33,279 nt of DNA, from positions 1-33,279 of IMG/VR virus record IMGVR_UViG_2718217713_000004. One strand, written 5' to 3'. The translations under genes and the position numbers were made by a program. Within the stretch, counting starts at the first letter, position 1. Every line of letters starts with the position of its first letter. Origin of the DNA: a virus. Taxonomy: Duplodnaviria > Heunggongvirae > Uroviricota > Caudoviricetes. Positions 1 through 33,279 of this stretch are shown here, piece by piece. The notes beneath the pieces were generated by a model. That model worked only from the letters and a program-made list of their open reading frames with translations. It was not told the DNA's origin and did no database searches.

Positions 1-903
1 TTATGAAAGCATAGACCGTTTACCCTCCCTGGGTACGACGGAACAGGGGTCCTGATGGATAATTACATCCGATCCCGGAAAACGCCGTAAAATAGCCTGC
101 TCTACCTGATCCGCCACCATATGTGCCTGAACCAAAGGCAGAGAGTCTTCCATTTCCAAATGAATCTGAATAAAGCGGGTCGGCCCTGACTGCCGCGTGC
201 GAAGATCGTGAGCGCCGCTAACACCCGGCCAGGAAGTCACGATATCAATAATTTCTTGCCGTTCCTCATCAGGCAATGCGCGATCCAGTAATGACTGTAC
301 CGCCTCATATCCCATGCGTAACGCGCTATATAAAATATAGATGCCGATTCCCAATGCAAACAGAGCATCGGCGCGATGCCAGCCGTACCAGGACAACCCC
401 AGCGCCAGCAGAATTGCGCCGTTCATCATAACATCAGACTGGTAATGTAGCATATCAGCCCGCACCGCCTGGCTTTGCGTCCGGCGCACCACCCAACGCT
501 GAAACGAGACAAGGATAATCGTACAAATTAGCGCCACAATTGTCACGATAACCCCGACGCCTGGATCTGTCATCGGTGTTGGAGATATCAGATGTTGAAT
601 ACCCGTCAAAAACAGGAATAGTGCTGAACCGGAGATAAACATACTTTGCGCCAGCGCCGCGAGGGACTCAGCTTTACCGTGACCAAACGAGTGATTATCG
701 TCGGCAGGTTGCAGGGAATATCGCACCACCAGTAAATTCGTCAACGACGCGCCGATATCCACCAGCGAATCCACCAGCGCGGCGAGAATACTCACCGACC
801 CGGTATACCACCATGCAAAAATTTTAATCAGCAATAGCAGCGAAGCCATCGCCGTCGCAGCAATCGCCGCCCGACTGACCAGCCGTCCATAAGATTGATT
901 CAT
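1..903 (-). CDS. fieF: Cation-diffusion-facilitator family Fe(II)/Zn(II) efflux transporter FieF (YiiP), complete, host gene
   Basis: Translation from [36 protein letters not shown] ... to ... [16 protein letters not shown] is 300 aa and matches E. coli FieF as I remember it; the ORF track's upstream MIAGVF extension rejected in favour of ATG at 903. Confidence 0.9.
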
Positions 904-984
904 AAATACTCCCGCTATCAACTGACGCTAGTATAACGGAAGCAAATCATCTGCAATGCATTAAGCAGCAGGCAAATTGAGGAT

Positions 985-1011
985 AAAAAAAACCCCCACA
1001 TCATGTGGGGG
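985..1011 (-). terminator. Rho-independent terminator acting on minus-strand transcripts (GC stem cccccaca/tgtggggg 993..1011, followed on the minus strand by a T8 run 985..992)
   Basis: Perfect 8-bp GC-rich stem with 3-nt loop and T-tract, read directly from the sequence; lies in the host/prophage junction upstream of fieF. Confidence 0.6.
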
Positions 1012-1020
1012 AAGACAGGG

Positions 1021-1100
1021 ATGGTGTCACAAAAAAGCACCTAACCTGATGATATAAATGGATTTATATCAAGCACTGTCCACATAGCGTCCACATCGAC
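1021..1100. other. Prophage attachment region on the ogr side (phage arm plus probable core): two direct repeats matching the P2 Int arm-type site TGTGGACA on the minus strand (1077..1084 and 1088..1095) and a 20-bp palindrome gatataaat-gg-atttatatc (1051..1070)
   Basis: Repeats and palindrome read directly; position between ogr and host fieF matches where P2 places attP next to ogr; arm consensus recalled from P2 Int literature. Confidence 0.5.
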
Positions 1101-1136
1101 CATAAATAAAGCCCCTTAACTGAGGGGCTATTTTTG
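1101..1136. terminator. Bidirectional hairpin terminator immediately downstream of ogr (stem agcccct/aggggct 1110..1129, T-rich runs on both sides)
   Basis: Perfect 7-bp stem with 6-nt loop followed by ATTTTTG on the plus strand and TTATTTATG on the minus strand. Confidence 0.6.
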
Positions 1137-1139
1137 TGA

Positions 1140-1358
1140 TCACATCCACATAATTTGCTGCCCTGACGGCAACGGGTGCGGTCTTACAGCGTGGACTTCT
1201 CCCGGCTTCACGATGTATCGCTGTACCGACTCATAAGTGATGAACGTGGCGCTGCAATTCACGTTCTGGCACTGGTGATAACGCTCTTTTGTCGTGTCAG
1301 TGATATAGCGGCTTGTACGCGCATGTGCGGCATGCTGGCATAAAGGACAATGAAACAT
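1140..1358 (-). CDS. ogr: Late-gene transcriptional activator Ogr (zinc-finger, 72 aa)
   Basis: MFHCPLCQHAAHARTSRYITDTTKERYHQCQNVNCSATFITYESVQRYIVKPGEVHAVRPHPLPSGQQIMWM with four-Cys zinc finger; start placed at the internal ATG (1358), not the upstream ORF-track start at 1421. Confidence 0.9.
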   Translation of the reverse strand: MFHCPLCQHAAHARTSRYITDTTKERYHQCQNVNCSATFITYESVQRYIVKPGEVHAVRPHPLPSGQQIMWM

Positions 1359-1439
1359 CGCGAGCACCTCTTCCGGTTTTGTTGATGGTGCCATTTTAGT
1401 TAATTTATCCTTATAAAACAAACAGATAAAATAAAAACA

Positions 1440-2603
1440 TCACTCATCACCTTCTGTTTCGTACTCCACATCAGAAAGCCTGACCTCAAGCTCCAAGGAC
1501 GTCGTGAAGCCGCTATTATTCAGAAAATGTGTCACCTTAGTGATTGTCCAGTCCTGCTCGTCTATGACGCGCTTAAAGCCTGACACTTTAACCGGTGTTT
1601 CCGTGTAAATATCAGCACGACCGGTAGCCAGACTGATGGAGAACTCCGCAACGCCCCGTTGCAGCTTATCCCACTTCGCCTGAGCGGCGCGCATGGCCTG
1701 CGCTTTCGTGGCATATACCGTGGTCAGGGCAAAAACGTTGTCAGCCTCACCGGCCATGTATTCACCTTCACGCGCTTCCGGTACTTTAGGCGCTTTCTTC
1801 TGCCTGACCGGTTTCGCTTTCGGGTGCTCCAGTGCGCGCAGGTGTTTCTCTTTCTTTTTGCGTTTCAGTTTTACCTTCTGCTTTTGCGGCTTCGGGTCTT
1901 TGGTGTGAAGCCACTTTGCCGTTACGCCGGTATAGGCTCCACGGTCAGCAATCGCAAAATGGTGGCGGTCGCCGTCGCTGCGGGTTATGGTGACCTGCGG
2001 GATTTTTTTACCGCTGGCCGTCACCCCCTGCCCCGCTTTGAGAAACAACAGTTTTCCCATTTTTACCGAGACCTCACCGCCGTTGCGTTCTGCAAGACGG
2101 GTCAGGAATTTCGCATCAGACTCCTGCGACTGGTCGATGTGCGGAATTTTAATTCCGGCCAGTGACGGAGCGACACTGGCTTCCAGCCTGTTACGGGAGG
2201 CTATCGCCTCAACAATCGCACCGAGCGTGGTGTCATGCCATGAGCCTTCCCGGCGGGAATTGAGCGTCCCGCGAAAATCTGCACTCCGGGCGCGGATGGT
2301 AACCACATCCGGCGCGCCCCGGTGTTCAACCTCATCAACGGTGAATTTCCCTTTGCATACCAGGGCAAAACCTTTCCAGCCGATATACACCGTCAGGACA
2401 GCGCCACGAACCGGCAGCCCGACCTGCCCGTCGGCATCGTTCAGTTCAATATCAAGCTGGTCAGCCTCAAAGCCCCGGTTATCCGTCAGGGTCATGCTCA
2501 TCAGACGGTCGCTGATATTGCCGGTAATATCCCTGCTGTCGAGCATCAGCATATAATCCGGCGTCAGTGTACTGCCTGCATCAAATGTCAGCGCATCCAG
2601 CAT
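1440..2603 (-). CDS. D: Tail protein gpD (387 aa)
   Basis: Length and sequence match P2 gpD; lysine-rich KPQKQKVKLKRKKKEK central region; position between ogr and U. Confidence 0.9.
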   Translation of the reverse strand: MLDALTFDAGSTLTPDYMLMLDSRDITGNISDRLMSMTLTDNRGFEADQLDIELNDADGQVGLPVRGAVLTVYIGWKGFALVCKGKFTVDEVEHRGAPDVVTIRARSADFRGTLNSRREGSWHDTTLGAIVEAIASRNRLEASVAPSLAGIKIPHIDQSQESDAKFLTRLAERNGGEVSVKMGKLLFLKAGQGVTASGKKIPQVTITRSDGDRHHFAIADRGAYTGVTAKWLHTKDPKPQKQKVKLKRKKKEKHLRALEHPKAKPVRQKKAPKVPEAREGEYMAGEADNVFALTTVYATKAQAMRAAQAKWDKLQRGVAEFSISLATGRADIYTETPVKVSGFKRVIDEQDWTITKVTHFLNNSGFTTSLELEVRLSDVEYETEGDE

Positions 2604-3082
2604 TATCCCGCCCCCGTCATACCCGTGAATCTGGTCGCCATACTGCCAGCCTTACCGATGAGCGATTCCGCCTGTTTACCGATATCGCCATAAAGCGCGG
2701 CCAGTGATTCATCAACGCGGGTGAGTGACAGCGTAAAATCAATTTTCCGGGGTGTGCCGTCTGCAAAGAAAATACTCCCTGTTTCACTCACCCTGCTGAT
2801 GACATACATGCCGTAAATCATGCCGGTGCCATCCAGCAACGGCCACGCCCGTCCCTCCTCTGCCATCAGCCTGAGCGTGGTCATCGTCAGCTTGCCGCCG
2901 GTCAGTTCGGGATAAAGCACACCGGCCAGCGTCATGTTTTCCTCACCCACACCGAGAAACTGGTAGGCATCCCGTTTACCGATACGGGAATTTGACGGCC
3001 AGCGATAATCTGATTCACGCTGCATGGTCTGGTGTGGCAGCGTCTGGCGCATAAAAACAAACATACCTAACGCGAGCATCAT
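2603..3082 (-). CDS. U: Tail protein gpU (159 aa)
   Basis: Length, position and sequence match P2 gpU; 1-nt stop/start overlap with D. Confidence 0.9.
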   Translation of the reverse strand: MMLALGMFVFMRQTLPHQTMQRESDYRWPSNSRIGKRDAYQFLGVGEENMTLAGVLYPELTGGKLTMTTLRLMAEEGRAWPLLDGTGMIYGMYVISRVSETGSIFFADGTPRKIDFTLSLTRVDESLAALYGDIGKQAESLIGKAGSMATRFTGMTGAG

Positions 3083-3096
3083 TTTTCGTCACCTCC

Positions 3097-5544
3097 TTAA
3101 CCGTCATGCATCATGCTGGCACGGGCGCGCGCACGTTTATCCCGCTCGTATTTTTCGAGCGCATCCTGTAACTGGCGGTCGAGCTGAGTCCCCGGCGCAG
3201 TACCGCCCGTCAGACTGATGTGATATTCGTTTTTACTCTGGTCCACATAAGAGCGGCCAGCCGGTGCCGTGACCGGCTGATAAGCCTGATAGCCTGCATA
3301 AGAGCTGGTCGCCGGAATATAACCACCGGTGCCATACGTGGCGGCATGAGTCCTTGCTGCGGTCTGGTCAAGTGTGTCTGACTCTTTGTTGATAACACCG
3401 AGTTTTTCCAGTACCCAGTCAATACCGCTGCGCAGTTTGTTGAACGCATTAAGCGGCAGCATCAGCGCGTCAGCCAGTGCCTGCCCGAACATGACCCCCG
3501 TGTCACGGCAACGGTTTAGGGTGTCCTGGGTGGCTTTGACCGGGGCAATCAGGTTTTTAAACCACTGCCACGCGGCCTGTAACTTTTCGCCCAGCCAGTC
3601 AAACACCGGCTTAAGTGGCGTGAACAGTTCCCCCACCGGCGCAAATGCCGCTTTCAGCCCTTCCACCACACCGCCAAAGAATGCGCTGACAGGCTCCCAG
3701 TATTTACGGATAAGCAACGCCCCGGCGACAATGGCGGCCACCACAGCCACAACCGGCCAGCTAATTGCCCCGATGGCCGTCATAACAGCACTGCCTATCG
3801 TCGTGAAGATTGCCCCCATTGCGCCTGCTGCCGCGATAATGGCATTGATGCCGGTGATAACCGGCCAGGCTACGAGGCCAATGGCACCGATGATGCCAGT
3901 AAGCGCCAGCGCGCCACCGACAATGAGGCCGATGGTTGACGCCAGTGATTTGTTTTTCTGGATCCAGCCGTCGAGTTTTAACACATACTTTGTGGCCGTC
4001 TGAGTGAGCTTACGCAGTGCGCCTTCCTGCTGGTCAAACAGGTCTGTCCCCACCGCCTCATAAGCGGACTGAAACTCCTTAAAGTCACCGCCGAGGTTGT
4101 CCTGCATGATATTTACCAGCTCGGCAGTCTTCCCGTCTGAGGCTTTAAACGCAGCGGTCAGTTTGTCCAGCTTTCCGGTTGAGGCGGCAGTCATCAGCAC
4201 GGCGGCGGCTGAGCTGGCCTCCTCCCCGAAAATAGTTTTCATGTATTCAGCCTGCTGGGCAGTACCGAGCCGGTTTTTCTCAAAACTGGCCTGCATTTCT
4301 TTCAGAATGGTAAATATTGGCCGGGTGTTTCCCTTACTGTCTGAGGTTTTCACTCCAAGCTCTTTGAGTGCATCCCATGCTTTTCCCGTCGGTGCCTGCA
4401 GGCGGCTTAACACGGCACGGCTTCCCGTCCCCGCCATTGAGCCTGTGATTTTTGCATCATGCAGCGCCCCGACCATTGCGGCGGTTTCTTCAATGCTGAC
4501 ACCGGCATTTTTTGCCACAGGTGCGGCATAGGTCAGCGCATCGCTCATGCCGTCAAAATCGGCGGCGGTTTTGTTCATCGTCATGGAGAGAACATCCCCG
4601 ATATGAGCGACCTTATCGTTTGAAAGCTGAAAGGCGGATTTCATCCCCATCAGCAGGGCAGCGTTTTCTTCCATCGTGCGACGGTTCGCCAGCGCCATAT
4701 TCAGCGTGACCGGCGTTGCCGCCTGAATGGCATCAACATCCCCACCGGCTTTCGCAATAATAATCTGCGCACCGGCTGCATCATCTGCCGAGGCGGCGGT
4801 ATTGTCGCCGAGCTGGCGCGCCTGTTTGCGTAGTGCAGCCATTTCGGCGGAGTCTTTTGCCACTCCGAGCACGGCCTGCAATTCTGAGTTTTTCTGCGCA
4901 AACTCATAACCGGGCATCAGCAGCTTAACTCCGGCCATCGTTCCCGCCGCCGCAATCCCCACACCGGCAGCGCCCACCGAGGCCATATTTCCTGCCAGTT
5001 CCTTTCCGGCCTGATAACGCTGTTTTACTGCGTTAAGTTTTGCCTGTTGTGCACTGACACGCGCCAGTGCGTCGCGCTGACGGTTAAGCTGTGCGGTGGT
5101 TTCACTGATACGGTTTTTCAGCCCCTGCTCATCATGTGCAAGATTGCGGGTATTAATTCCCACAGCGGCCAGTTCCCGCTGCTGGCGCTTAACGGAATCC
5201 GTCAGGCGGTTATATTTCGCCTGTAAGTCCTCCGCCGCACGCTTTGCGGATTCCAGCACTTTCGCCTGAGCACGGGTCGGACGTTCAGTGTTTTTAAACT
5301 GTGTGGCAAGGGCTTCGGCCTCCTGCCGTGCCTTTTCAAGTGCATGACCAGTCACGGCGAGCTGTGCGCTGGTCTTGCGAAATCCCTCAATACGGGATGC
5401 CTGACCATTCAGCTCGCGCAGTGATTTTTGTGTTTCCCGGATATCCCCCGACAGCGACTTGCTCGCTGTGCGGATGGATTTAAACGGGCGGGATGCCTGG
5501 TCAACAGCCCTGAGCAATACCTGTAATTTTACATTGTTACTCAT
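3097..5544 (-). CDS. T: Tail tape-measure protein gpT (815 aa)
   Basis: Long coiled-coil-rich N-terminus, Ala/Gly-rich hydrophobic central segments, 815 aa as in P2 gpT; start ATG overlaps the E' stop (ATGAGTAA). Confidence 0.9.
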   Translation of the reverse strand: MSNNVKLQVLLRAVDQASRPFKSIRTASKSLSGDIRETQKSLRELNGQASRIEGFRKTSAQLAVTGHALEKARQEAEALATQFKNTERPTRAQAKVLESAKRAAEDLQAKYNRLTDSVKRQQRELAAVGINTRNLAHDEQGLKNRISETTAQLNRQRDALARVSAQQAKLNAVKQRYQAGKELAGNMASVGAAGVGIAAAGTMAGVKLLMPGYEFAQKNSELQAVLGVAKDSAEMAALRKQARQLGDNTAASADDAAGAQIIIAKAGGDVDAIQAATPVTLNMALANRRTMEENAALLMGMKSAFQLSNDKVAHIGDVLSMTMNKTAADFDGMSDALTYAAPVAKNAGVSIEETAAMVGALHDAKITGSMAGTGSRAVLSRLQAPTGKAWDALKELGVKTSDSKGNTRPIFTILKEMQASFEKNRLGTAQQAEYMKTIFGEEASSAAAVLMTAASTGKLDKLTAAFKASDGKTAELVNIMQDNLGGDFKEFQSAYEAVGTDLFDQQEGALRKLTQTATKYVLKLDGWIQKNKSLASTIGLIVGGALALTGIIGAIGLVAWPVITGINAIIAAAGAMGAIFTTIGSAVMTAIGAISWPVVAVVAAIVAGALLIRKYWEPVSAFFGGVVEGLKAAFAPVGELFTPLKPVFDWLGEKLQAAWQWFKNLIAPVKATQDTLNRCRDTGVMFGQALADALMLPLNAFNKLRSGIDWVLEKLGVINKESDTLDQTAARTHAATYGTGGYIPATSSYAGYQAYQPVTAPAGRSYVDQSKNEYHISLTGGTAPGTQLDRQLQDALEKYERDKRARARASMMHDG

Positions 5545-23324: not shown

Positions 23325-25283
23325 ATGTCAGATTTCGAAATTAAAATTGATTTGAATGTGCTAAATCACCTAGGGATGAGTCTCTATTCCAATACTCCCG
23401 CGGTACTAACTGAGATTATATCAAATGCATGGGATGCAGATGCTCAAAATGTAGAAATTACACTTGATGTTGAGAAAGGAGAGGTCATCATTAAAGATGA
23501 TGGTCATGGCATGTCTAAAGATGACATTATTAATAAGTTCCTAAAAGTCGGTTATGCTCGCAGGGAACATGGAAGAGCCAAAAGCGATCATCTAAAACGT
23601 CAAGTTATGGGCAGAAAAGGTATTGGTAAGCTTGCCATGTTTTCACTTGCCAATAAAATCCAAGTTTATTCGTACAAAAAGGGGGAACAGCCTCAGGCCT
23701 TTGAGGTAGATGTCAAAGATTTACAGCAAAGTATCAAAGAATCAAAAAACTATATTGCTGACTCCCTTGAAATACCCGAAAATCTTGCTTACGGCACTAC
23801 AATTAAATTATTTGAACTAAAAAAAGCCATTGATAGGACTCAAACTTACCTCAGAAAGCGAATAGCTCGTCGATTTAGCATTATTGGCCCCAACCATAAC
23901 TTTACAGTTAAAATTAATGGGACCGATATTACACCGGCAGATAGAGATTTCCTTTCAGATCTCGAGTTCATTTGGGAATTTGGCGAATCCGACCCTGAAA
24001 GGATAAAATCCTGCACAAACATCACACAAAAAAACATATTACCAAATACTATTACCTTTGAAGGAAAAGATGTAAAAGTTAGTGGGTACATTGGCAGTGT
24101 AGTTAAGCCATCACAGTTAAAGAAAGACCCTGAAATATCTAACAACAGCATTACTGTAATCTCTCACGGACGTGTTTTTGAGGAGGACATATTATTAGAA
24201 TTTGGAAGTGCTAAAGTATTCACCAATTATCTGGTCGGTGAAATAGTCGCCGATTTTCTAGATGATAACGAAAAGCCTGATATGGCAACATCTTCTCGTC
24301 AAAAACTACAACAGAATGATCCAAGATACCCTGTACTTAAAGGTTTTCTGGAAAGAACGCTACAACTAATCGATAAAGATTGGGATAAATGGAGACGCGA
24401 AAAAGGAGTAAATGAAGTTAAAAGTAATACTCCAATAGTAAGTGAATGGCTGAATTCTCTCAAAAAACATGAGAGAGAAAGTGCCGAAAAGTTAATTGGA
24501 CGAGTAAACACATTCCGTTTTTCTGGTAATGAGGAAGAACAAAAAGCAGCAAGAAAAACCGTATTAAAAAATACGGTATTAGCCTTTGAAAGACTTAGAA
24601 TTCAAGACAACCTTGATGCATTAGATAAAATAAGCAACCTTCAATCAGAAAATTTTAAAGATGTATTTGCATCTGTCAATGACATTGAAGCAAGCATGTT
24701 TTATGAAATTACTTCGCAACGCCTTAAAGTAATTGAAAAATTCCAAAAAATAACTGATGAAAATCAGCTTGAAAGAGCTGTACAAATGTATTTATATGAT
24801 CATTTATGGTTATTGGATCCTTCATGGGAAAGAGTCACAGGCACATCTGTTATGGAGCAAACATTGACCAAGGAACTAAAACAGATAAACCCTGATGCTG
24901 CTAGCGGTGCTCGTATTGATATCGCTTTCAAAACCGTTTCTGGCAAGCATGTAATTATTGAGATGAAACGACCTAAAGTGCACCCAGATATAATGAACCT
25001 AGTCGCACAAGGTAATAAATATGTACAGGCAACGACACAATGGTTCTCCAATAACCCTAAAAATTGCCCAGGTGGAAATATACCGCATATAGAAGTAATA
25101 TTCCTGGTTGGCTCTGGATATTTACAAGAGAACCAACACTTTATAAATATGCAATTACTTTCTATCAATGGAAAAATATTGACATATAATGACCTAATCG
25201 TGCAATCAAAACAAGCCTATGCTGAATATCAAGACAAAAAGAATGATGCAGCTAGAATTATGAAAATAGTTGAGGGAATCTAA
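23325..25283 (+). CDS. Hypothetical GHKL-family ATPase (HATPase_c / Bergerat fold, MutL-MORC-like N-terminal domain) with a C-terminal PD-(D/E)xK-like nuclease motif, 652 aa; candidate restriction or defence effector
   Basis: N box EIISNAWDA, G1 box IIKDDGHGM, G2 box GRKGIGKLAMF near the N-terminus; C-terminal ARIDIAF...HVIIEMKRPK fits D...(D/E)xK; Shine-Dalgarno aagga upstream of ATG; AT-rich codon usage unlike the phage backbone. Confidence 0.6.
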   Translation: MSDFEIKIDLNVLNHLGMSLYSNTPAVLTEIISNAWDADAQNVEITLDVEKGEVIIKDDGHGMSKDDIINKFLKVGYARREHGRAKSDHLKRQVMGRKGIGKLAMFSLANKIQVYSYKKGEQPQAFEVDVKDLQQSIKESKNYIADSLEIPENLAYGTTIKLFELKKAIDRTQTYLRKRIARRFSIIGPNHNFTVKINGTDITPADRDFLSDLEFIWEFGESDPERIKSCTNITQKNILPNTITFEGKDVKVSGYIGSVVKPSQLKKDPEISNNSITVISHGRVFEEDILLEFGSAKVFTNYLVGEIVADFLDDNEKPDMATSSRQKLQQNDPRYPVLKGFLERTLQLIDKDWDKWRREKGVNEVKSNTPIVSEWLNSLKKHERESAEKLIGRVNTFRFSGNEEEQKAARKTVLKNTVLAFERLRIQDNLDALDKISNLQSENFKDVFASVNDIEASMFYEITSQRLKVIEKFQKITDENQLERAVQMYLYDHLWLLDPSWERVTGTSVMEQTLTKELKQINPDAASGARIDIAFKTVSGKHVIIEMKRPKVHPDIMNLVAQGNKYVQATTQWFSNNPKNCPGGNIPHIEVIFLVGSGYLQENQHFINMQLLSINGKILTYNDLIVQSKQAYAEYQDKKNDAARIMKIVEGI

Positions 25284-25288
25284 TTATA

Positions 25289-25312
25289 CCCCCCTGTTTT
25301 TTGACAGGGGGG
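25289..25312. terminator. Hairpin between the convergent GHKL and methyltransferase genes (stem cccccctgt/acagggggg, U-rich loop); terminator-like, bidirectional
   Basis: Perfect 9-bp GC stem read from the sequence; no clean post-stem T-tract, so terminator function is tentative. Confidence 0.45.
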
Positions 25313-25324
25313 ATGACATAAGTT

Positions 25325-26374
25325 TTAAATATTCATTTCTGACAAATGTTTTAAAATAGTTTCACCTACGACCTCACCAAGCCTAACAGGAACAGCATTA
25401 CCTATTAAACGCGCAACTGTTCTCATTTCAATTTTTACATCATCAGGCCAAAACTCATACTTTTCTGGGAATGACTGTAATAGCGCAGCCTCTCTTAAAC
25501 TTAATGCTCTATTTTGGACAGGGTGCCCAAAGCGTCCATTCCCATATCCAATACATTGAGTTGTAATTGTCGGTCCAAGTTTATCCCAACACATTCTCCC
25601 ATATACAGCAGTATATGTAGAACCACTTTCTTTTGTATGACATTTTGCTCTTAGCTCTTCTGGCCAATCACGCCATGTTCCACCAGGTTTTGATGCCATT
25701 ATTCTTTTTATATTAATATCAGATAATGATGCAGAGCGATGTAGTTTATCTCCAGCGTGAACAGCACCGGCACTAATTTCAGGAAGATTACCGATTATAT
25801 CTCGCACCGTTTTATAATCATTCTTCTCATGAGTTGGTGGAATTATTTCTATTTCTCCATATTTTGATGCCAATAACACTAATCTTGAACGACTTTGTGC
25901 CATTCCATAGTCTGGACAAAACACCACCCCATACCAAACAAAATAGCCATCATTTTTAAGAGACTTAATGAAGTCCTTAAAAACCTTATGATTCACCACT
26001 CGGGGAACGTTTTCCATTGTAATAATATCTGGCTTTGCAAATTTAATTTGCTTAGCAAAGCTATAAAGCAAAGACCATCTTTTATCTTTTGAACGTACTA
26101 CCCCTAATTTAGCACTATTGGTATAGCTTGAAAAAGGTTGGCATGGGGCACAACCAGCCAAAACTCGAACCTTCGCTCCTTCGAAATATTTAACTAATTC
26201 GCCGTCCTCAATGTCTGTAACACTTTTCTGGACAAAGAGTGATTTATTATTTGTCTCATAGGCAAATCGACAGGCTGCATCTATATCATAACCTGCAACT
26301 ACATTAAGCCCCGACTTCTGAAGACCGTGAGTCAAGCCACCCGCGCCACAGAATAAATCAACAACCTTAATCAA
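25325..26374 (-). CDS. DNA (cytosine-5)-methyltransferase, Dcm-type
   Basis: Motif I DLFCGAGG, motif IV PCQPFS, motif VI ENV, C-terminal GNAVP in canonical order; start assigned to TTG at 26374..26372, preceded by AAGGAGG with 6-nt spacing (ORF track begins further upstream at 26476, also TTG). Confidence 0.85.
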   Translation of the reverse strand: MIKVVDLFCGAGGLTHGLQKSGLNVVAGYDIDAACRFAYETNNKSLFVQKSVTDIEDGELVKYFEGAKVRVLAGCAPCQPFSSYTNSAKLGVVRSKDKRWSLLYSFAKQIKFAKPDIITMENVPRVVNHKVFKDFIKSLKNDGYFVWYGVVFCPDYGMAQSRSRLVLLASKYGEIEIIPPTHEKNDYKTVRDIIGNLPEISAGAVHAGDKLHRSASLSDINIKRIMASKPGGTWRDWPEELRAKCHTKESGSTYTAVYGRMCWDKLGPTITTQCIGYGNGRFGHPVQNRALSLREAALLQSFPEKYEFWPDDVKIEMRTVARLIGNAVPVRLGEVVGETILKHLSEMNI

Positions 26375-26440
26375 GATAAACCTCCTTCTAATGCTGTGGG
26401 GATTGTAGCATTGTTCTTTCTCATCATCGATGTTTACTTG

Positions 26441-26471
26441 ATGCTTGATTTGTGAATACAAAATCAAGCAT
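26441..26471. promoter_or_regulatory. 31-bp palindrome ATGCTTGATTT-N9-AAATCAAGCAT overlapping a promoter-like TTGACA upstream of the methyltransferase; candidate operator
   Basis: Perfect 11-bp inverted arms read from the sequence; AT-rich with no T-tract (not terminator-like); on the minus strand TTGACA overlaps the first arm. Confidence 0.45.
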
Positions 26472-26485
26472 GTCAATCATTATTG

Positions 26486-32298: not shown

Positions 32299-33279
32299 AT
32301 GGCAATTAAGAAGCTCGATGATGGTCGCTATGAAGTGGACATTAGACCTCGCGGTCGCGACGGAAAACGCATCCGCAGGAAATTTGAAAGAAAAGCTGAA
32401 GCACTAGCATTTGAGCGATACACAATCGCCAATGCCAGTCAGAAAGAATGGGGAGGCCAGCGAGCAGACCGCCGAACTTTGACAGAATTGCTCGACATCT
32501 GGTGGAAATACCACGGGCAAAACCACGAGCATGGGACAAAAGAGTTTAATCATCTGCTCAAAACCATCAGCGGCATAGGTGATATACCAGTGAGCCGGAT
32601 GAACAAAAGGGCTTTGATGGATTATCGCTCCATGCGACTACGTGATGGCATCAGTGCTGCAACGATAAACCGCGACATGTACCGATTATCCGGCATGTTC
32701 ACAAAATTAATTCAATTGGATGAATTTTCCGGGCAACACCCAATTCACGGACTGCCGCCACTGACGGAGGCTAACCCTGAAATGACGTTCCTGGAAAAAG
32801 CAGAAATCGAAAAACTGCTAAATGTTTTGACTGGTGATGACTTACTTGTCGCGCTTTTATGTCTGAGCACTGGAGGAAGATGGACGGAAGTTGCCACGCT
32901 AAAACCAGCACAGATTACAAGTTGCAGGGTTACCTTCCTGAAAACCAAAAACGGTAAAAAGCGAACAGTGCCGATTTCTGAGGAACTGGAGAAAAAAGTT
33001 AAAGAGGAGGCCAGCGCCAAATTGTTCAAGGTAGATTATGAGAAGTTTTGCGGGATTTTACGCAGAGTGAAACCTGATATACCTCCCAATCAGGCAACCC
33101 ACATTCTGCGGCATACATTCGCAAGCCATTTCATGATGAATGGGGGCAACATAATTGCACTGCAACAGATTCTGGGGCATGCGAGCATTCAGCAGACAAT
33201 GACCTATGCGCACCTTGCGCCTGACTACCTGCAGAACGCCGTCGCTCTGAATCCACTAAAAGGCGGAGTGACGTTATAA
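32299..33279 (+). CDS. int: Tyrosine integrase (P2 Int family); stop codon is the last three bases of the window
   Basis: MAIKKLDDGRYEVDIRPRGRDGKRIRRKF... N-terminus and C-terminal HILRHTFASHFMMNGGNIIALQQILGH...YAHLAP catalytic region match P2 Int; ATG at 32299 chosen over the ORF-track start at 32269. Confidence 0.9.
   Translation: MAIKKLDDGRYEVDIRPRGRDGKRIRRKFERKAEALAFERYTIANASQKEWGGQRADRRTLTELLDIWWKYHGQNHEHGTKEFNHLLKTISGIGDIPVSRMNKRALMDYRSMRLRDGISAATINRDMYRLSGMFTKLIQLDEFSGQHPIHGLPPLTEANPEMTFLEKAEIEKLLNVLTGDDLLVALLCLSTGGRWTEVATLKPAQITSCRVTFLKTKNGKKRTVPISEELEKKVKEEASAKLFKVDYEKFCGILRRVKPDIPPNQATHILRHTFASHFMMNGGNIIALQQILGHASIQQTMTYAHLAPDYLQNAVALNPLKGGVTL

Follow-up and report, generated by a model that had tools for sequence, protein, structure and literature searches.

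The fieF-ogr gap of an Escherichia coli P2-family prophage as a WΦ-type attR whose core copies the cpxP/CpxQ terminator

The window, i.e. the whole stretch of 33,279 nucleotides analysed here, opens on the host gene fieF, which encodes a CDF cation efflux transporter, continues with the late-gene activator gene ogr, after which come the P2-type late and early genes, and closes on the tyrosine integrase gene int, its edges being the fieF stop codon at 1 and the int stop codon at 33279. It matches E. coli C11 (NZ_CP010133.1) at 100% identity, and there the prophage lies between fieF and cpxP. The gap separating fieF from ogr is 236 bp long and holds every junction element listed in the original prediction, namely a pair of arm-type repeats, a palindrome and two hairpins, all of them present with coordinates that were exact or within 1 bp (Table 1). 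Most P2-like IMG/VR contigs are likewise cut at the int stop codon, and attL together with the P' arm consequently falls outside such predicted prophage regions. As almost all of the IMG/VR loci fetched by Int end there, complete E. coli genomes were used for attL/attR pairs; the attL side was taken from a locus of E. coli C11 that runs past the int stop codon (L001) and the empty site from the uninterrupted cpxP-fieF region of strain FCI55 (L002).

Table 1. Features of the junction and of the neighbouring genes, in window coordinates.
Feature	Positions	Strand	Basis
fieF (CDF cation efflux transporter, host, B' side)	1..903	-	Pfam Cation_efflux and ZT_dimer; RefSeq annotation in identical and empty-site genomes
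Host B' flank (fieF upstream region)	904..981		FCI55 empty site identical up to the core
Common core (O) of attR, 47 bp	982..1028		Exact copy at attL, one copy in the empty site
Intrinsic terminator of the cpxP mRNA/CpxQ sRNA, fieF-side copy	985..1011	-	Terminator scan and RNA fold
Strand-exchange interval (inferred)	1002..1028		Loop allele sorting at 1001; end of identity at 1028
Predicted IHF site, P arm	1034..1071	-	Palindrome 1050-1071 and consensus match at 1054-1042
Two Int arm-type sites, P arm (TGTGGACA, 1084-1077; TGTGGACG, 1095-1088)	1077..1095	-	Aligned to P2 'Int, P arm'
Terminator of ogr and the late F operon	1110..1129	-	Terminator scan; aligned to P2 terminator feature
ogr (late-gene activator, 72 aa)	1140..1358	-	Pfam Ogr_Delta zinc finger; RefSeq name ogrK
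int (tyrosine integrase, WΦ specificity)	32299..33279	+	Pfam Int_N and Phage_integrase; stop codon ends the window

Three-way alignment of the window, the C11 attL side and the FCI55 empty site delimits the common core, GATAAAAAAAACCCCCACATCATGTGGGGGAAGACAGGGATGGTGTC, which is duplicated at both prophage ends, with an exact second copy at 2213-2259 of L001, 116 bp past the int stop codon, and which occurs once in the uninterrupted host. The identity between attR, attL and attB stops exactly at the core edges, with zero extra bases on either side, and this sets the prophage boundary at 982..1028, neither at the palindrome nor at the ogr terminator. Since the arm adjoining ogr is the P arm, the fieF-side junction is the attR (P-O-B'), and the assignment of positions 922..1139 to the attR of a WΦ-type prophage of the P2 family can be made with high confidence. 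The original prediction of a host-prophage junction of a P2-type phage was thus borne out by the empty site and by the other junction: the uninterrupted host reference locates the junction where it had been proposed, and the duplicated core expected to flank arm repeats at the opposite prophage end was found there. In C11 itself the two core copies are identical, so that the host or phage origin of each is not directly readable in that genome.

The core coincides with a transcription terminator. The first hairpin of the gap, on the minus strand, spans 1011-993, its 8-pair stem closing a 3-nt loop, and runs into U8 at 992-985; it was recognised as terminator-like by the scan and is a strong match to an intrinsic terminator as defined by a G+C-rich stem-loop with a U-tract. 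On the cpxP strand of the empty site, the core extends from 23 to 70 nt past the cpxP stop codon, the terminator portion taking up 23-67 nt; it combines a short single-stranded segment with the stem-loop and U-tract of the terminator and 3 nucleotides more. The cpxP 3' UTR gives rise to CpxQ, an Hfq-dependent sRNA of about 60 nt freed by RNase E (PMC9438474; PMC4817254), which covers almost the entire 3' UTR (PMC9438474). The phage core reproduces the final 44 nt of CpxQ plus 3 nt and, as it corresponds to the end of the cpxP 3' UTR and hence to CpxQ, the phage targets the 3' end of cpxP/CpxQ. The hairpin next to fieF had been suspected of being the native cpxP 3' terminator and the phage of having integrated at the 3' end of that locus; the empty site and the other junction establish the former and agree on the latter.

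Of note, the copy in the window is a partial duplicate and not a CpxQ gene, because it holds the 3' 44 nt of CpxQ only and is preceded by phage P-arm DNA instead of cpxP; the complete CpxQ element is found at attL and at empty sites. An Rfam scan by E-value of positions 800-1500 and of the empty site returned no match to a CpxQ family, nor did an Rfam scan of the entire window at gathering thresholds return any match. The sole signal, on the opposite strand, was from the Rfam family Hrs1 (RF02628, 'Hfq-regulated sRNA 1'), which stayed below its gathering cut-off of 56.4 bits, with 31.8 for attR and 44.5 for the empty site. These matches are antisense to cpxP, at 2786-2858 of the FCI55 locus (+ strand) and 985-1051 of the window (+ strand), and the Hrs1 consensus, which opens with A7 and goes on to a hairpin, has the look of a reverse-complemented terminator; judging from this arrangement, Hrs1 may represent a CpxQ homologue for which the model was built on the wrong strand. 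In addition, a relic of the CpxQ 5' end was looked for by eye in the P-arm segment beside the core (GGTGCTTTTTTGT), with nothing convincing.

Beyond the core, each junction element can be named through its homology to the mapped attP of P2. On the plus strand, the arm repeats read TGTCCACA at 1077-1084 and CGTCCACA at 1088-1095, 11 bp from start to start, and their P2 counterpart in the alignment of P2 with the window is CGTCCACAcatTGACCACA. A single arm octamer is not unusual, with 3 matches in the window vs. 2.0 expected, and the tandem GTCCACAN4GTCCACA occurs once vs. 0.01 expected from shuffled sequences. The P' arm at attL carries GTGTCCACAtaGTGTCCACA at about 2112-2131 of L001, oriented alike and likewise spaced by 11 bp, so that each arm bears two direct repeats in one orientation that fit the arm consensus tgTGGaCa published for P2-type phages (PMC3448106). 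The proposal that the repeats are P2-type Int arm sites was accordingly upheld by their alignment with the Int site of the P2 RefSeq record and by the matching pair in the other arm.

The second hairpin, 1110-1129, comes directly after the ogr stop codon, and the P2 sequence aligned with it is annotated as 'rho-independent terminator for ogr transcript and F operon'; with its interrupted U-tract, TTATTTATGG, it is a weaker terminator match than the 1011-993 stem with its U8. In IMG/VR prophages, one and the same module, made of ogr, the arm sites and the A/T palindrome, adjoins any of three cores, of the P2 type, of the WΦ type or of a third type, which shows these att sites to be modular in build. 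The IMG/VR loci fetched by Ogr all encode a 100% identical Ogr, and this sample is therefore not diverse. The third specificity was seen in four IMG/VR loci (L026, L057, L064 and L083), about 90-130 nt past the ogr stop codon, where the shared module of ogr, arm sites and palindrome adjoins ...TTTCATGTAATTAGATATCAAAAAATGTCACCAATAACTGACATTGCGG..., which likewise has the look of a terminator.

The palindrome between the arm sites and the core had been offered as either the core or an accessory-factor site, and only the latter part of this proposal stood. It is in fact 22 bp long, TGATATAAAT-gg-ATTTATATCA, and extends over 1050-1071, the 20 bp at 1051-1070 having been reported originally. That it would be the recombination core or crossover site could be argued from its dyad symmetry, as in many core sites, and from its position between the arm sites and host DNA; yet it is absent from the empty host site, where the identity with the host ends at 1028, it has no second copy at attL, the same module is joined to three unrelated cores in P2-like prophages, and the homologous sequence of P2 is annotated as an IHF site and not as the core. 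The comparison of attL, attR and attB refutes this reading, the chance of which is practically nil. The palindrome region aligns instead with the IHF protein_bind feature of P2 (NC_001895, 24324-24357), the palindrome itself falling on P2 GAAATAAAAGGATTTATTTC inside the IHF footprint, and TATCATCAGGTTA (1054-1042, minus strand) is the sole match to the IHF consensus WATCAANNNNTTR within one mismatch in 1025-1100, with TTTCAATTTATTG at the equal relative position in P2. On the basis of the alignment to the annotated P2 footprint and of this consensus match with one mismatch, the palindrome is predicted to be an accessory-factor (IHF) site of the P arm. A dyad recognised by a dimeric phage protein, Cox or C, or a hairpin in RNA or DNA, in place of an IHF site, would account for the perfect 10+10 inverted repeat, which is uncommon by chance (the window has 3 perfect inverted repeats whose arms reach 10 or more and whose loop is no longer than 4, vs. 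a mean of 0.33 in Markov-1 random sequences), and for the one symmetrical difference between the P2 and WΦ types (GAAATAAA/TTTATTTC vs. GATATAAAT/ATTTATATC), in which the symmetry is kept. Against it, natural variants are altered in one arm without compensation, with TATGTCA in one arm in L-413C and strain M217 and GATATGAAT in the other arm in strain O157:H16 98-3133; these two uncompensated variants disfavour a strict dyad requirement, and perfect symmetry seems dispensable from such natural variation. Besides, the RNA of the palindrome folds weakly (-7.3 kcal/mol, z = -1.6) and the Cox sites of P2 are annotated on the opposite side of the core, all of which leaves the dyad or hairpin very improbable next to the predicted IHF site.

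A further reading concerns the core itself, which could be regarded as a phage-borne CpxQ 3' module, transcription reading through from ogr and yielding a putative chimeric CpxQ-like regulator or Hfq competitor. The 44-nt CpxQ 3' part with its Hfq-type terminator indeed lies downstream of ogr and in the ogr orientation in both attP and attR, the chimeric RNA of 67 nt is predicted to fold stably (-24.3 kcal/mol, z = -3.55), and the U-tract of the ogr terminator is interrupted. If true, the att core would double as a regulatory RNA module, and read-through RNA from late expression would perturb the Cpx envelope-stress circuit or titrate Hfq. However, the scan of 800-1500 found no sigma-70-like promoter on either strand, the single-stranded CpxQ segment would be masked in the predicted fold by its pairing with the P arm, and the long core identity is fully explained by the rebuilding of the 3' end of the target gene, as for tRNA-integrating phages. 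A regulatory role of this kind is thus highly unlikely.

The continuity of this attachment site in free phage supports the attR assignment. When the phage sides of attL and attR were joined into a rebuilt attP of 867 bp, matches over at least 80% of its length were obtained in 40 phage records, including WΦ (93%), L-413C (96%), P24B2, P37 and fiAA91-ss, so that a contiguous attP (P-O-P') exists in packaged phage genomes; the attP of the free phages WΦ and L-413C contains the identical 47-bp core with near-identical P arms. The P' arm is adjoined by its cognate tyrosine integrase (32299-33279), 97% identical to the Int of WΦ and 52% identical to that of P2, the first 35 or so residues, i.e. the arm-binding end, being nearly identical to P2 Int. 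A near-identical N-terminus with a divergent remainder fits arm sites in common with P2 and a different core.

In a BLAST survey of 5426 complete E. coli genomes, 690 matched at least 80% of a 751-bp query running from fieF through the junction to ogr, 785 at least 80% of an 89-bp attR query and 803 to 820 at least 80% of 89-bp attL queries. About 15% of complete E. coli genomes thereby have the WΦ-type junction, many of the lysogens being clonal, so that genome counts do not amount to independent events. In the M217/CFS3273 lineage, the prophage at this site carries IS66-family elements, joined in the 44-kb prophage of strain M217 (L168) by IS150 and IS21-family insertions, the IS21-family one splitting the replication endonuclease gene; from such IS-carrying prophages it follows that at least some of the approximately 800 lysogens are defective, vertically inherited elements.

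The terminator loop is polymorphic at 1001, with T or G on the plus strand, i.e. an RNA loop UGA or UGC, and this natural variation allows the side of strand exchange to be read. The C (UGC) allele lies beside cpxP in 896 genomes, about 19% of non-lysogens, and beside fieF in about 1050, the excess of about 120-154 corresponding to lysogens with C at attR. At attL, no C allele was seen for three P'-flank types among the matches listed, the best being 98.9% identical; these attL allele counts derive from BLAST identity bands and top-ranked rows, and rarer P' flanks in lysogens could hide a C allele. A C-allele attP was found in none of 43 phage records. In two lysogens of different phage lineages read directly, M217 and O157:H16 98-3133, attR has C and attL has A. 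The loop base is thus host DNA at attR and phage DNA at attL and, because the identity ends at 1028, the exchange takes place within 1002..1028, on the cpxP-proximal side of the loop. The exchange interval would be consistent with the 27-bp core of P2, which takes up offsets 6-32 counted from the IHF element and, in the WΦ type, overlaps 1010-1028. No reliable polymorphism within 1002-1028 was found to bound the exchange from the cpxP side, a single IMG/VR draft contig (L038) having T1025G together with an adjacent P-arm change. Natural allele sorting between attL and attR hence places strand exchange computationally and without biochemistry, and constitutes a small addition to a known site.

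With the exchange in this interval, lysogens use a CpxQ terminator supplied by the phage; the target being a 3'-UTR-derived sRNA, every such lysogen terminates cpxP/CpxQ with phage DNA and, in hosts with the C loop allele, lysogeny alters one base of the CpxQ loop. In the mechanism proposed here, the phage attP would present its 47-bp copy, with the single-stranded region, stem-loop and U-tract that end CpxQ plus 3 nt, to the host site, the N-terminal domain of Int would bind the two arm-type sites of each arm, and the P arm would be bent by IHF at the A/T-rich palindrome that separates its arm sites from the core. Strand exchange would then proceed in the cpxP-proximal 27 bp of the core, with the cleavage positions predicted to fall within this stretch. 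After integration, cpxP would retain a complete CpxQ with the phage-supplied terminator at attL, and the original terminator of the host would be left stranded beside fieF, fused to the phage P arm, as the attR of the window. This prophage may still be able to excise.

Besides the attachment site, cargo genes are found at two places. Between the portal gene and the replication gene of the window (23325-26476), a 652-aa GHKL-ATPase protein matches PADLOC models of type II restriction enzymes (E = 2e-91) and its gene is adjoined by a convergent one for a 382-aa C-5 cytosine methyltransferase; by these matches, the pair resembles a type II R-M module carried by the phage, at the accessory hotspot usual for P2. 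In other WΦ-type lysogens, a gene for a 212-aa protein is inserted exactly past the P-arm Int sites (equivalent to window position 1098) and before ogr, at 456-1097 in the M217 locus (L168), 3412-4053 in L003 and 461-1102 in L170; the protein matches PADLOC PD-T4-10_B (E = 2e-34) and no Pfam family. IS150 is also inserted at this slot in M217 and EC-16-35, and the recurrence of insertions there suggests a putative second cargo slot beside attP.

Taken as a whole, the junction is ordinary, that of a known phage type at an already published site. A WΦ prophage occupies cpxP-fieF in E. coli W (PMC3032704, Table 2), and WΦ and L-413C have one site and one core, at MG1655 position 4104392 (PMC3448106, Table 1 and text). 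The window prophage shares with these two phages the chromosomal site along with the core and a nearly identical P arm, at about 93-96% nucleotide identity over int-attP-ogr, and differs from them in its cargo genes; its P' segment beside the core is unlike that of WΦ and resembles that of L-413C. With P2, the order of elements is kept, the RefSeq attP (NC_001895) running through ogr, its terminator, the Int P arm, IHF, the Int attP core, Cox and the Int P' arm, the last of which overlaps the 3' end of int, and a base-for-base alignment is obtained for the terminator, the arm sites and the A/T-rich module of the predicted IHF site. In contrast, the P2 core of 27 bp, AAAAAATAAGCCCGTGTAAGGGAGATT, is unrelated to the present one and belongs to another chromosomal site, the inner arm site lies 48 bp from the boundary of identity here vs. 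40 bp in P2, and the core-binding and catalytic regions of the two integrases are only about 50% identical.

Integration at the 3' ends of RNA genes is a familiar strategy, phage 186 being found at tRNA-Ile, Fels-2 at ssrA and ΦW104 at ryeB. As in these tRNA-, tmRNA- and sRNA-integrating phages, the identity stretches from the region of exchange as far as the transcript end, here stopping 3 nt past the U-tract, and the replacement 3' end comes from the phage. Small RNA genes are recognised integration targets (PMC7380047), and E. coli W has other P2-like prophages at rybB and cyaR (PMC3032704); in the literature searched, no link of CpxQ to an integrase or attachment site was found. Unlike in those phages, the sRNA targeted at cpxP has no free-standing gene but originates in the 3' UTR of a protein-coding mRNA.
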